A stretch of 56,817 nucleotides of DNA from Patescibacteria group bacterium (GCA_041650755.1 JBAZKN010000002.1:135030-191846); one strand, 5' to 3'; positions 3,891 to 53,994 are shown, counted from the stretch's first letter. Numbers and translations: made by a program. The notes: generated from the sequence alone by a model not told the origin.

Positions 3891-3950
3891 GCAGCCCTGA
3901 ACTTAGTGAGCGACCCTGCACTATACGGTGCAGGGGAGCCAAATGGTTGA
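3891..3950 (-). repeat. Orphan copy of tRNA-trailer palindromic module
   Basis: GAGCGACCCTGC-N7-GGTGCAGGGGAG at 3908-3938 has both 12-nt arms identical to 11168-11198 (trailer of tRNA-Arg GCG). Confidence 0.85.
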
Positions 3951-4034
3951 TGGGCGTGTGTAATACTCTTCGGCTCACTCTATGTCAATTATTTCTCCAA
4001 TGGTTGAAGCTCCGAATACAATGAGGAGCTGAAG

Positions 4035-4096
4035 CCACCGATTCGGCCCGAGCTCACGGCCGAGGGCGAGCGAGGAGCCGAAGGCGACGAGTCGAG
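4035..4096 (-). repeat. Palindromic trailer of tRNA-Arg(CCG)
   Basis: 4035-4074 is 38/40 identical to 43962-44001 behind tmRNA. Confidence 0.9.
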
Positions 4097-10803: not shown

Positions 10804-10851
10804 ATTTTATTTTAGTCACTTTATAGAGACTTAATTTTATATTATTAAGGC

Positions 10852-10887
10852 AAATAAAAAAGATACCAAATTGGTATTTTTTTATTT
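10852..10887. terminator. Bidirectional intrinsic terminator between liv operon and tRNA cluster
   Basis: A-tract, ATACCAA-A-TTGGTAT hairpin, T-tract. Confidence 0.65.
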
Positions 10888-10894
10888 AAGTACC

Positions 10895-11025
10895 TCGTGC
10901 TAGCACGATGTCCCTCGATGCGCTTCGCTTACTTGGGACATTCGACTAGTGAGTGGTAGAAGTCCGAGGCAAGGCCGAGGATGTAGACCATGAGCGACCT
11001 CGAGCGTAGCCGAGAGGGAGTCGAA
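10895..11025 (-). repeat. Multi-module palindromic trailer of tRNA-Ser(TGA)
   Basis: TTCGACTC-hairpin-TCGCTCATGGTCTAC module followed by ATGTCCCAAGTAAGCGAAGCGCATCGAGGGACAT, similar to the module behind tmRNA; ends in the 14-bp palindrome TCGTGCTAGCACGA. Confidence 0.85.
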
Positions 11026-11115
11026 TGGCGGAGAGTGAGGGATTCGAACCCCCGATCCACTTGCATGGATAACAGTTTTCAAGACTGCCGCATTCGACCA
11101 CTCTGCCAACTCTCC
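11026..11115 (-). tRNA. tRNA-Ser(TGA)
   Basis: GGAGAGT/ACTCTCC acceptor, anticodon loop CTTGAAA, long variable arm, TTCGAAT, CCA. Confidence 0.96.
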
Positions 11116-11153
11116 AAAATTTTTTATATTCGACCCAGCTCTATCAACAAAAG

Positions 11154-11203
11154 TGGCCGAAGGCCATGAGCGACCCTGCGCCGTATGGTGCAGGGGAGTC
11201 GAA
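11154..11203 (-). repeat. Palindromic trailer of tRNA-Arg(GCG)
   Basis: TTCGACTC-CCCTGCACCATACGGCGCAGGG-TCGCTCATGGCC directly after CCA. Confidence 0.85.
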
Positions 11204-11279
11204 TGGCGTCCCCGAGAGGAGTCGAACCTCTAACCTCTTGGACCGCAACCAAGTGCTCTATCCATTAAGCTACGGGGAC
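11204..11279 (-). tRNA. tRNA-Arg(GCG)
   Basis: GTCCCCG/CGGGGAC acceptor, CTTGG-TTGCGGT-CCAAG anticodon arm, TTCGACT, CCA. Confidence 0.95.
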
Positions 11280-11348
11280 ATGATAAATATTATTTTTAAG
11301 TAGCGGTAGAGTGTTTAGGTTAAGTGCCTAAAACACGCAAGGTTTTAC

Positions 11349-11374
11349 GCCATGCACCCTACGTGGTGCATGGC
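11349..11374. repeat. 10-bp perfect hairpin overlapping the CCA end of tRNA-Ser(GCT)
   Basis: GCCATGCACC-CTACGT-GGTGCATGGC. Confidence 0.85.
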
Positions 11375-11462
11375 GGAGAGGGTGGGATTCGAACCCACGG
11401 ACCGGTTTAACCCAGTCAACAACTTAGCAGGTTGCTGCTTTCAGCCGCTCAGCCACCTCTCC
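11371..11462 (-). tRNA. tRNA-Ser(GCT)
   Basis: GGAGAGG/CCTCTCC acceptor, anticodon loop CTGCTAA, long variable arm, TTCGAAT, CCA. Confidence 0.96.
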
Positions 11463-11485
11463 ATGTAAAAATATTTAACTGCTAT

Positions 11486-40778: not shown

Positions 40779-41126
40779 ATGCGCGCCTGCCTGTGATGGG
40801 ATGATAGTTTCCCGCCGCAGGCGGGACCCCGCCAAAAGCGGTGGCAGCCATCTTGATGTTTTGCCTGTCATCCCGCAGAGCGGGACATAGCGCAGGTATG
40901 GGAATTTATTATTAAGCTCTGCATCTGTCTGATGGGGTGGTAGTTCAGCTGGTTAGAACGCCTGCCTGTCACGCAGGAGGTCGAGGGTTCAAGTCCCTTC
41001 CATCCCGCCAGACAGATGCAGAGCTTTTAAAATTGACGAGCAGGAGGCCTGCCCTGCAAATCGTGAAGCGGTTGTGCGGGGTCGTCCCGCGTTACGGGAT
41101 CCATCCCGCCACAGGCAGGCGCGCAT
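40779..41126. repeat. Nested inverted repeats enclosing tRNA-Asp
   Basis: Outer arms 40779-40803 / 41102-41126 (23/25); inner perfect 18-bp arms 40914-40931 / 41009-41026. Confidence 0.9.
40934..41010 (+). tRNA. tRNA-Asp(GTC)
   Basis: GGGGTGG/CCATCCC acceptor, CCTGC-CTGTCAC-GCAGG anticodon arm, TTCAAGT, CCA. Confidence 0.96.
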
Positions 41127-43726: not shown

Positions 43727-43805
43727 CTTTTTCTATTTAATAATTAATTTGGTGTTTTTGTTATCCTTTAAGGATAAGAGAAACATGTGATAAATTATAT
43801 GTTTT

Positions 43806-44029
43806 GTCATCCTTCGCCACGGCTACGGATGACATCCTGCGCGAGTTCTGCGAGCTATTTCCGGTGGCCTTCGATTATGAATGTCCTTCGACTCACTTCG
43901 TTCGCTCAGGGCACTCGATTCCAGGGTCGGAATGGTCGGAGGTGCTAATAAGCACCGTAGACCACCGATTCGGCTCGAGCTCACGGCCGAGGGCGAGTGA
44001 GCTTTTTGCGAAGCAAAAGGCGAATCGAG
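43806..44029 (-). repeat. Multi-module palindromic trailer of tmRNA
   Basis: 40-nt block shared with the tRNA-Arg(CCG) trailer, GGTCTAC, CCCTGAGCGAACGAAGTGAGTCGAAGGACAT module, GTCATCC...GGATGAC palindrome. Confidence 0.88.
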
Positions 44030-44407
44030 TGGTGGAGATGAGGGGGATTACACCCCTGTCTGACAAATGTCAAAATAAACGTCTACCAATATAGTTAATT
44101 TTTTCGCTTTGGCTATTGGCTATAAAATTAGCAAAAAACCAATAACCTAGTTAACTTGCGTTTCGAAATATCCAGGTTAACGCTAGATATTCCTAAGCCT
44201 GATAAATGACGCCCCAGCCAAAACCTCAGGCAAGCCATGGTGGAACGGTCTTAAGCGTTAAGCTAAGACTGGTGAAAGTTGAGGAACTTGGAAAAGTTCT
44301 TTGGCTTTCGCAAATAAGTTTTTGGCACTTATTTGGTTACGATTTTACAGTTCGTGAACTGACTGGCAGTTTATCCCTTCACTTGCCGTCGAATATAAAA
44401 CATCCCC
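44030..44407 (-). ncRNA. ssrA: tmRNA; tag peptide (A)KNLFAKAKELFQVPQLSPVLA*
   Basis: 5' GGGGATG pairs with CATCTCC-ACCA including G3-U70; ATAAGT-GCC resume context; lies 5 nt after the smpB stop. Confidence 0.93.
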
Positions 44408-53619: not shown

Positions 53620-53937
53620 ATGGATAAACAATATTTTGTTTATATTTTGGCAAATTATAAAAATGGGACTTTGTATGTTGGTGTAACCAATGATTTGTAT
53701 CGACGTGTAACTGAACACAAACAAGGTAGGGTAAAGGGATTTACACAAAGATATAAAGTTTATAAATTAGTTTATTACGAAGTCATCGATAATGTCTATA
53801 ATGCAATTACTAGAGAAAAACAAATAAAGAAATGGTATAGAAAATGGAAAATAGAATTAATTGAGAAGTATAATAAAAAGTGGGAAGATTTATATTATAA
53901 TTTATTTGATGGATCTCCGGGTCAAGCCCGAAGATGA
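53620..53937 (+). CDS. Small GIY-YIG nuclease family protein
   Basis: YFVYIL, GTLYVGVTNDLYRRV.EH, KLVYYE, AITREKQIKKW.RKWK.ELI. Confidence 0.92.
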   Translation: MDKQYFVYILANYKNGTLYVGVTNDLYRRVTEHKQGRVKGFTQRYKVYKLVYYEVIDNVYNAITREKQIKKWYRKWKIELIEKYNKKWEDLYYNLFDGSPGQARR

Positions 53938-53994
53938 CAAACATTAGCGGTGTTTTTATTGCTCTGCTAGTCATTCCCACGAAAGCGGGAATCC
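53911..53994. repeat. Inverted pair of GTCAT-tagged palindromes at the GIY-YIG 3' end
   Basis: Minus: GTCATCTTCGGGCTTGACCCGGAGATCC (53911-53938); plus: GTCATTCCCACGAAAGCGGGAATCC (53970-53994, ATTCCC-N8-GGGAAT core). Confidence 0.9.

Follow-up and report, generated by a model that had tools for sequence, protein, structure and literature searches.

A repeat family behind the encoded CCA ends of tRNA and tmRNA genes of Patescibacteria

About half of the 42 tRNA genes in a Patescibacteria genome of 1.02 Mb (41% GC, 10 contigs, 99% complete) are followed, right after the encoded CCA, by a GC-rich sequence that starts with (C/T)TCGA(C/T)TC, as a comparison of the 160 nt behind all 42 genes revealed. 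These sequences belong to a repeat family behind tRNA and transfer-messenger RNA (tmRNA) genes, for which we coin the label R1. Two of the copies lie in a cluster of three tRNA genes within the 56,817-nt stretch analyzed here (C2:135030-191846; the window), whose 3′ trailers were described in an earlier note as folding back over their own CCA ends. We consider it probable that R1 is a site-specific, protein-less mobile family of mosaic palindromes that, in Patescibacteria, colonizes the bond directly behind the CCA encoded by tRNA and tmRNA genes. The fold-back comes with this wandering element and is no regular constituent of tRNA genes.

Position and anatomy of R1

A hidden Markov model (HMM) built from these trailers retrieved 20 full R1 copies and two weak partial matches in the genome. 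Seventeen of the 20 copies start exactly after a tRNA or tmRNA CCA, i.e., with the base that follows A76, and tRNA-type CCA ends precede 19 of them; one copy is located behind a pseudo 3′ end downstream of tRNA-Ala(TGC). A covariance model of R1 recovered 121 copies from 23 sister genomes. Ninety-seven of these related copies lie exactly after the CCA of a called tRNA or tmRNA gene, with 32 anticodons represented, and the remaining ones are found mostly behind tmRNA ends or displaced tRNA 3′ ends. R1 is always on the tRNA strand and in one orientation. The location of the element is site-specific, and the proposal of the earlier note that elements insert at CCA ends is borne out both by these starts after A76 and by the presence or absence of R1 at orthologous tRNA genes, which is described below. 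A lone orphan copy was also noted at C5:35804-35920 (minus strand), after ...GATCCCA at the edge of an apparent coding sequence.

R1 is 80-150 nt long, GC-rich, and contains no open reading frame (ORF). Junction A consists of NCCA and the following YTCGAYTC, and a hairpin of freely variable sequence (HP1) comes directly after it. Segment B, CTCRCTC-R-TGG-NN, is the arm that the earlier note had paired with the CCA end. A second hairpin of variable length (HP2) is closed by NNCCA (segment D), which imitates a tRNA 3′ end, and is followed by an AT-rich spacer, distal to which lies segment C, rTCGAR-TG. The terminal hairpin, HP3, reads TCCYGAGCG...GTCGARGGA; in some copies, its loop contains another hairpin of the HP3 type. 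The junction also includes single-stranded CTCRCTC and TC linkers, which are conserved. Judged by their base sequence, segments B and C each represent an antisense copy of the junction, that is, of the host NCCA together with the first bases of the element.

The copies located in the window are listed in Table 1 with their parts and neighbors. At both tRNA-Ser(TGA) and tRNA-Arg(GCG), the junction is arranged in the order GCCA, TTCGAC, TCC, hairpin, GTCG, CTC, and then ATGGT or ATGGC, respectively. Re-reading of the minus strand recovered the pairings that had been quoted for all three trailers of the cluster: GCCAT-TCGAC at 11029-11020 pairs with GTCG-CTC-ATGGT at ca. 10999-10987 behind tRNA-Ser(TGA), and GCCAT-TCGAC at 11207-11198 pairs with GTCG-CTC-ATGGC at ca. 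11175-11163 behind tRNA-Arg(GCG), while the palindrome at tRNA-Ser(GCT) is indeed perfect, with arms of 11 bp where 10 bp had been given before. The trailers of tRNA-Arg(CCG) and tmRNA, for which the same behavior had been claimed, contain CCAC...GTGG plus CGAYTCG/CGAATCG, and both are R1 copies. In the tmRNA copy, ACCACTCGATTCG and CGAATCGGTGGT form a helix of 12 bp with a single bulge. An extra hairpin is nested before TGG in the tmRNA, Arg(CCG) and Val(TAC) copies. A partial second copy consisting of HP1 and GTCGCTCA was observed at 3907-3943 (minus strand), ca. 150 nt past tRNA-Arg(CCG) and behind an internal CAACCA; it suggests that R1's own CCA mimics can act as secondary insertion sites.

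The best promoter-like site found by a consensus scan, TTGCCA-17-TATGAT, is located at 11514-11486, upstream of tRNA-Ser(GCT). Should the three co-oriented tRNA genes be transcribed as a unit, as we infer, both R1 copies of the cluster would be part of the transcript. The hairpin with a T-run that lies furthest downstream (Table 1) is, by its appearance, likely the intrinsic terminator of the cluster and was left unflagged by the consensus scan. The sole flag raised by the terminator scan on the minus strand was HP2 of the Arg(GCG) copy, which, with the CTTTTGTTG that follows it, is terminator-like.

Table 1. Features of the tRNA cluster, other R1-bearing loci and genes of the UPF0213 type
Feature	Position	Strand	Remarks
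tRNA-Ser(GCT)	11371..11462	-	CCA encoded; ARAGORN, Rfam
Perfect 11-bp palindrome CGCCATGCACC-ACGTAG-GGTGCATGGCG at tRNA-Ser(GCT)	11348..11375	-	includes C72, G73 and CCA
tRNA-Arg(GCG)	11204..11279	-	G73, CCA encoded; ARAGORN, Rfam
R1 copy after tRNA-Arg(GCG)	11127..11203	-	77 nt, without HP3; 56.2 bits
Junction A of Arg(GCG) copy	11196-11207	-	
HP1 of Arg(GCG) copy	11174-11195	-	
Segment B of Arg(GCG) copy	11162-11173	-	TCGCTCATGGCC
HP2 of Arg(GCG) copy	11154-11166	-	TGGCC-TTC-GGCCA
Segment C of Arg(GCG) copy	11127-11134	-	GTCGAATA
tRNA-Ser(TGA)	11026..11115	-	G73, CCA encoded; ARAGORN, Rfam
Full R1 copy after tRNA-Ser(TGA)	10911..11025	-	115 nt; 75.2 bits
Junction A of Ser(TGA) copy	11018-11029	-	
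HP1 of Ser(TGA) copy	10998-11017	-	
Segment B of Ser(TGA) copy	10986-10997	-	TCGCTCATGGTC
HP2 and internal CCA mimic of Ser(TGA) copy	10954-10990	-	
Segment C of Ser(TGA) copy	10939-10946	-	GTCGAATG
HP3 of Ser(TGA) copy	10909-10940	-	TGTCCC...GGGACA
Displaced original tRNA-Ser trailer hairpin (putative)	10893..10910	-	CATCGTGCTAGCACGAGG; 3′ edge of the insertion
Hairpin with T-run	10852..10883	-	AAAAAAATACCAATTTGGTATCTTTTTTATTT; read by eye; behind the old Ser trailer
tRNA-Arg(CCG)	4171-4097	-	
R1 copy after tRNA-Arg(CCG)	4001..4096	-	nested hairpin (CCCTCGGCCGTGAGCTCGGGCCGAATCGG) before TGG
tmRNA gene	44030-44407	-	
R1 copy after tmRNA	43882..44029	-	same nested hairpin as in the Arg(CCG) copy
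UPF0213 gene of this genome (G000)	C2:89454-89711		
UPF0213 loci in related genomes	L040, L047, L049, L067, L076, L094, L102, L108, L127, L129, L141-L155		

Covariation and alternative folds of the junction

When the first 70 nt of the trailers were folded as single sequences, the predicted probability that the CCA is paired was 0.95, 0.95 and 1.00 at the Ser(TGA), Arg(GCG) and Ser(GCT) loci, respectively; equal values were reached in 5, 14 and 1 of 100 dinucleotide shuffles. In several R1-bearing trailers, the CCA is predicted to be free and TGG to pair with the internal CCA instead. By these predictions, single-sequence thermodynamics rises only weakly above chance. One could therefore suppose that the complementarity is incidental, i.e., that the trailers are ordinary terminator or stabilizer hairpins, or integrase attachment-site (att) scars, with a TGG that falls near the CCA by chance. 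Such a reading would accommodate the shuffle counts, the considerable mean probability with which shuffled trailers pair the CCA (0.33 overall, 0.39-0.55 for the three loci) and the terminator-like flag on HP2 of the Arg(GCG) copy. We regard it as very improbable, given that the same 100-nt architecture recurs in dozens of genomes, at 32 kinds of tRNA, with scores of 40-91 bits under a calibrated model, that the pairing of the first element base with its partner was kept in 120 of 121 copies through at least 11 switches, that R1 comes with no integrase and copies at most 5 nt of a tRNA 3′ end, and that T-runs do not generally follow R1 hairpins.

The comparative data argue strongly, at the level of aligned sequences, for pairing of the CCA. 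The helix between the junction and segment B (A:B), which is the one proposed in the earlier note, was left out of the structure of the covariance model, while the helix between the junction and segment C (A:C) was part of it, so the alignment leans towards A:C. The A:B helix, N73-CCA-Y / R-TGG-N, is nonetheless paired in 93.5% of cases across the 121 related copies, and its covariation score is 0.297 compared to 0.155 in shuffles, none of 500 of which reached the observed value; controls in which the helix was slid along the alignment gave at most 0.152. The CCA-pairing helix thus covaries across relatives. The first element base (+1) and the R that precedes TGG form UA in 69 copies, CG in 50 and another combination in 1. 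The discriminator covaries only partly (AU 74, GU 16, GC 10, unpaired 20), and TGGC is enriched at hosts with G73 (11/28 vs. 8/110 of other hosts, p=1e-4). The A:C helix, CA-YTCGAY : rTCGAR-TG, is 95.1% paired and contains two covarying pairs. Finally, TGG-N1N2 of segment B can also pair with the internal N2′N1′CCA (B:D), and this pairing covaries at two positions, with N1 engaged in UA in 87 and in CG in 12 copies, and N2 in CG in 81 and in UA in 17. On an element tree made from the remaining alignment columns, the minimum number of switches was 12 for the +1 base, 11 for the proximal R and 14 for the distal R; because of these repeated switches, the +1/R signal does not go back to one ancestral split. 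Compensatory change in the inner hairpins, noticed earlier at the loci of the window, is also seen in the covariation of hairpins, including HP2, across copies.

The complementarities define, on paper, two mutually exclusive folds: A:B, or A:C together with B:D. When each fold was forced, energies for A:B vs. A:C plus B:D were -31.3 vs. -32.6 kcal/mol at Ser(TGA) and -32.8 vs. -34.5 kcal/mol at Arg(GCG). The two folds differ by 1-3 kcal/mol and are near-isoenergetic. The possibility that the closed fold is an RNase P substrate that mimics tRNA was considered and rejected, the 3′ strand of the closing stem being devoid of an NCCA-like tail.

Probable mobility, host tRNAs and candidate partners

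R1 is present in 26 of the 39 genomes of the family, with 0-22 copies in each, and in 47 of the 86 genomes of the order; among 300 genomes drawn from the phylum as a whole, 20 contain it. Counts within one genus were 0, 22, 13, 0, 1, 8 and 4. The copies spread between tRNA genes and between genomes: for 109 of 120 copies the closest relative is located at a different tRNA, 44 times in the same genome, and for just 11 it occupies the same tRNA of another genome. The host discriminator is distributed near-randomly on the element tree (35 changes vs. 39 when shuffled).

The sites themselves are polymorphic. In sister genera of the same family, Ser/Arg/Ser clusters usually have AT-rich spacers of 0-22 nt and no element, and other genera have R1 at a different gene of the cluster. 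A metagenome scan with the neighboring ABC-transporter protein yielded 80 loci with at most 84% identity, and the tRNA cluster adjoins the gene in none of them. In several relatives, a palindrome, CATCGTGCTAGC(A/C)CGAGG, comes directly after the CCA of tRNA-Ser; here, it is found behind a 115-nt insert, and the palindrome CATCGTGCTAGCACGAGG may be this older tRNA-Ser trailer hairpin. Since the old trailer is intact behind the insert, the latter lies exactly between A76 and the old trailer, with no duplication. The suggestion in the earlier note that the elements regenerate CCA ends was not supported, because relatives without the element encode CCA as well and the old Ser trailer follows intact right after the element.

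A 3′ half of tRNA-Thr(GGT) that was displaced by a 14-kb island (C1:47896-48063), situated 14.3 kb downstream of the live gene, keeps an R1 copy. The only live tRNA-Thr(GGT) gene of the genome has a new trailer and no R1. The element is dispensable for its host tRNA. R1 does not behave as a fixed part of tRNA genes: the copy stranded at the dead Thr end and the orthologous sites from which R1 is absent point to mobile DNA.

These data bear directly on the idea that R1 is a 3′-maturation device that benefits the host, with a trailer that protects the CCA or guides an endonuclease (RNase III, RNase P or another) through a two-fold switch and that is inherited along with tRNA genes. The two junction helices and HP2 covary and the folds are near-isoenergetic, the elements share the strand of the tRNA genes without exception and are found within a cluster of co-oriented tRNA genes, and TGGC is enriched at G73 hosts, as would be expected of such a device. 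Exact 3′ cutting may also matter in this organism, because neither RNase Z nor a CCA-adding enzyme was detected: single-HMM searches of the genome, which is 99% complete, gave nothing better for RNase Z than a metallo-beta-lactamase hit of 22 bits, below the curated cut-off, and no CCA-adding enzyme of the PolyA_pol type. With CCA encoded in 41 of the 42 tRNA genes, the removal of stable structures must therefore stop exactly at A76. We nevertheless find a maturation device an unlikely explanation of R1, since half of the tRNAs of the genome and whole sister genomes of the same genera do without the element, orthologous Ser-Arg-Ser clusters work with 0-22-nt spacers, the sole functional tRNA-Thr(GGT) is devoid of R1 while a dead 3′ fragment retains it, copies are located behind pseudo 3′ ends and one at a non-tRNA site, and the kinship of elements ignores tRNA identity. 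A role as a 3′-processing or maturation switch may be a secondary function of R1.

The tRNA gene that lacks an encoded CCA is a tRNA-Arg(TCT)-like gene at C9:4199-4271, on a 6-kb contig with 43% GC; in this lack it differs from all other tRNA genes of the assembly, and it may be foreign or phage-derived. Trailers of another build were also noticed. At tRNA-Asp(GTC) (window 40916-41111, plus strand), a 14-nt leader (40916-40929) is the exact complement of part of the trailer (41011-41024), and a 12-nt copy of the gene's own 3′ end (TCCATCCCGCCA, 41100-41111) stands behind a GC-rich insert. An insert followed by a duplicate of the last 10-14 nt of the tRNA is likewise present behind the Trp, Gln(TTG), Gly(GCC), Glu(CTC), Ala(TGC), Cys, Leu(TAA) and Ser(CGA) genes. 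The combination of insert and tRNA-end duplicate is a second, different kind of tRNA-trailer element.

We searched for proteins that might move R1. Reverse transcriptase (RT; PF00078) was rejected as a driver as it does not follow R1 abundance, with no RT domain in the richest genomes G003, G016, G012, G054, G010 and G080, and the Y1 transposase (PF01797) was rejected as it is absent from the R1-rich G000, G003, G012, G043, G047, G054 and G069. An element active as RNA could be envisaged in place of a protein-driven one, namely a small self-cleaving or self-ligating ribozyme, or a guide RNA in which B and C act as the guides, that frees the tRNA and attaches to new NCCA-3′ ends. B and C do bridge the junction as intron guide sequences or a ligation splint would, the targets have nothing in common but a tRNA-type CCA end, the junction contains CTCRCTC and TC linkers that are single-stranded and conserved, and no protein tracks R1 fully. 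Even so, we rate this scenario below the maturation device, as a poor prospect: no Rfam ribozyme or other family matches R1 even at E<=10, and fixation in DNA would need reverse transcription, for which the richest genomes have no RT domain.

On sequence and neighborhood grounds, the best candidate for a partner that moves R1 is a GIY-YIG nuclease of the UPF0213 type. The genome contains three small GIY-YIG genes, and one of them, encoding 86 aa (C2:89454-89711), is located directly behind the R1 copy of tRNA-Pro(CGG). The relatives of its product in PDB are only the UPF0213 proteins 1zg2 and 1ywl; NCBIfam gives a protein of this type no name, and no described function of the UPF0213 family, which is widespread, was found in the literature searched. 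Orthologues of the gene are single-copy, on the tRNA strand and immediately 3′ of a tRNA gene in every case that could be determined, the host being mostly Tyr and also Met, Ile(GAT), Arg(CCT) and Pro(CGG). R1 separates the tRNA (Tyr, Met or Pro) from the UPF0213 gene at 11 loci; in other loci the gene starts 12-20 nt after the CCA, and twice only a YTCGAYTC stub remains. This arrangement suggests that the UPF0213 gene, too, is a mobile cassette with a specificity for the 3′ ends of tRNA genes. The co-occurrence across genomes also speaks for a link, R1 being present in 22 of the 26 genomes with a UPF0213 orthologue and in 4 of the 13 without one (Fisher p=0.003). Another of the genome's GIY-YIG genes, a single-domain gene of 105 aa at 53620-53937 (plus strand), is Ssn-like in look and is followed by an NTS-like hairpin, GTCATTCCCACGAAAGCGGGAATCC (53970-53994), that is one base short of the published SRM pattern.

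A number of observations weigh against the reading of R1 as a mobile family moved with the help of such a partner. No transposase, integrase, RAYT or reverse transcriptase tracks its abundance. The comparison of genomes with and without a UPF0213 orthologue ignores kinship; about half of the genomes have the GIY-YIG gene behind a tRNA that bears no R1 copy, and the adjacency of the two may simply reflect two separate elements that share one niche. Joining of DNA is not a known activity of GIY-YIG nucleases. A comparison of filled and empty Ser(TGA) sites reveals no target-site duplication; all such comparisons are between genera, and no empty and filled sites were found within one species. The near-perfect covariation at three positions could stem from a copying mechanism and not from selection on folding. 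In comparisons meant to separate RNA from DNA as the folded form, the antisense strand folds more stably in 83 of 102 copies, probably an effect of C/T-rich composition, and counts of G.T vs. A.C in stems conflict across hairpins (0 vs. 16 in HP1, 23 vs. 20 in HP2, 28 vs. 5 in HP3). Finally, the Ser(GCT) palindrome is tied only loosely to the family: its core, TGCACC..GGTGCA, resembles only HP1 of type I R1 copies, and it was not among the HMM or covariance-model matches in this genome.

Relation to known systems and proposed mechanism

The author of the earlier note recognized no named element with this behavior, and searches of Rfam, of the SRM pattern and of the literature agree. At the gathering score and at E<=10, Rfam returned only tRNA, tmRNA and matches overlapping tRNA (at E<=10 for window 10850-11480 and 43780-44040), and the literature searched contained no account of tRNA-trailer repeats in bacteria of the candidate phyla radiation (CPR) or of miniature inverted-repeat transposable elements (MITEs) that target CCA ends. 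The targeting rule of R1 was found in no paper or Rfam family searched, and the element is apparently undescribed.

R1 resembles the repetitive extragenic palindromes and bacterial interspersed mosaic elements (REP/BIME) that, together with REP-associated tyrosine transposases (RAYTs), make up REPtrons, in being short, GC-rich, imperfect mosaic palindromes that are multicopy, non-coding and located 3′ of transcription units. Its copy number, like theirs, varies between relatives, and there is a possible link to one single-copy gene of the nuclease type. In contrast to REP/BIME, R1 is confined to the tRNA/tmRNA CCA end, has one orientation and uses host bases in its stems; there are ca. 1-22 copies per genome rather than hundreds, and Y1/RAYT is absent from most R1-rich genomes. 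General intergenic dispersal of the REP/BIME kind was not observed, nearly all of the 121 related copies being behind tRNA-type CCA ends. From classical MITEs (Correia/NEMIS, RUP, ERIC, RPE), R1 differs in the absence of a target-site duplication and of a cognate insertion sequence (IS) transposase, in a left repeat that borrows the CA of the host and in a single insertion site that is defined by the 3′ end of a stable RNA. It shares with them the nature of a 100-150-nt non-autonomous structured repeat with insertion polymorphism that is presumably co-transcribed with its neighbors, and it does have terminal inverted repeats of the MITE type, CAYTCGAY / rTCGARTG, 8 bp long and 95% complementary, the first two bases of which are those of the host CCA.

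Ssn nucleases are encoded by small single-domain GIY-YIG genes beside NTS/SRM hairpin repeats (Chenal et al. 2025, PMC11893778). As in that system, a GIY-YIG gene co-occurs with and adjoins the R1 hairpin repeats, and folded single strands are the likely substrate. Ssn repeats are, however, scattered around genes, while R1 is fixed to CCA ends, and PMC11893778 makes no mention of tRNA. The SRM pattern, HGTCWYN(0-2)YYVSBRHN(0-5)WNVSBRGN(0-2)RNCYNB, has no match in the 20 R1 copies on either strand. The flanking GIY-YIG gene of the Ssn systems is of the cd10448 type; here a GIY-YIG gene co-occurs, but its closest solved relatives are UPF0213 proteins.

Structured repeats that follow tRNA genes, are co-transcribed with them and contain sequence resembling a tRNA 3′ end are also represented by RtT RNA and the 178-bp repeats distal to E. 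coli tyrT and tyrV (RF00391). The function of the tyrT/tyrV-distal repeats is unknown. Unlike RtT, R1 has a 5-nt CCA mimic and antisense copies instead of a 19-nt tRNA end and is associated with 32 kinds of tRNA plus tmRNA; RF00391 gave no match at E<=10 in window 10850-11480 or 43780-44040. The small GIY-YIG homing cassettes of the phage T4 SegB type are likewise inserted between tRNA genes and present or absent among relatives, but R1 encodes nothing and occupies many non-allelic tRNA genes, and homing by flank homology cannot explain 32 tRNAs. Att scars left by integrases would show 15 nt or more of a tRNA 3′ end as a direct repeat that brackets the insert, along with an integrase; R1 holds only NNCCA (5 nt) and no ORF. 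A GC-rich hairpin followed by a U-run, as in intrinsic terminators, was flagged only for HP2 of the Arg(GCG) copy, and R1 copies are located between and behind co-oriented tRNAs. By the features compared, R1 does not fit REP/BIME, SRM, RtT, classical MITEs or att scars.

How R1 might recognize its site can be pictured from its two folds. In the first, which is that of the earlier note, the junction would pair with B and stack on the acceptor stem; in the second, the junction would pair with C while B pairs with D. The helices that span the junction would define the CCA|Y bond, and the need for removal to stop exactly at A76 makes it plausible that they mark this bond for cleavage. At insertion, they would provide a guide-like pairing to the CCA end; in the transcript, a precise cut would remove the element and leave the host tRNA with its CCA. 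Taken to its conclusion, R1 would belong to a new class of guide-bearing selfish elements: two guide segments would recognize the universal CCA-3′ end, R1 would keep the host alive in that it directs or catalyzes exact cleavage at CCA|Y, and the UPF0213 nuclease would act on the folded junction. This last mechanism is put forward tentatively and is, by our own estimate, doubtful. If it is true, the position after the CCA would be a safe harbor in organisms that have neither RNase Z nor CCA repair.

The identification of R1 raises the questions of how a structured insert is removed from about half of the pre-tRNAs in a cell where no RNase Z or CCA-adding enzyme was detected, what role is played by two covarying junction helices and whether UPF0213 GIY-YIG proteins act on folded junctions. 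For annotation, it follows that mobile repeats should be excluded before "conserved structures" that flank tRNA genes of Patescibacteria are called regulatory RNAs. Should R1 be the mobile family that we take it for, ultra-small bacteria would harbor a non-coding mobile element that targets, to the single bond, the 3′ end of every kind of tRNA and of tmRNA.

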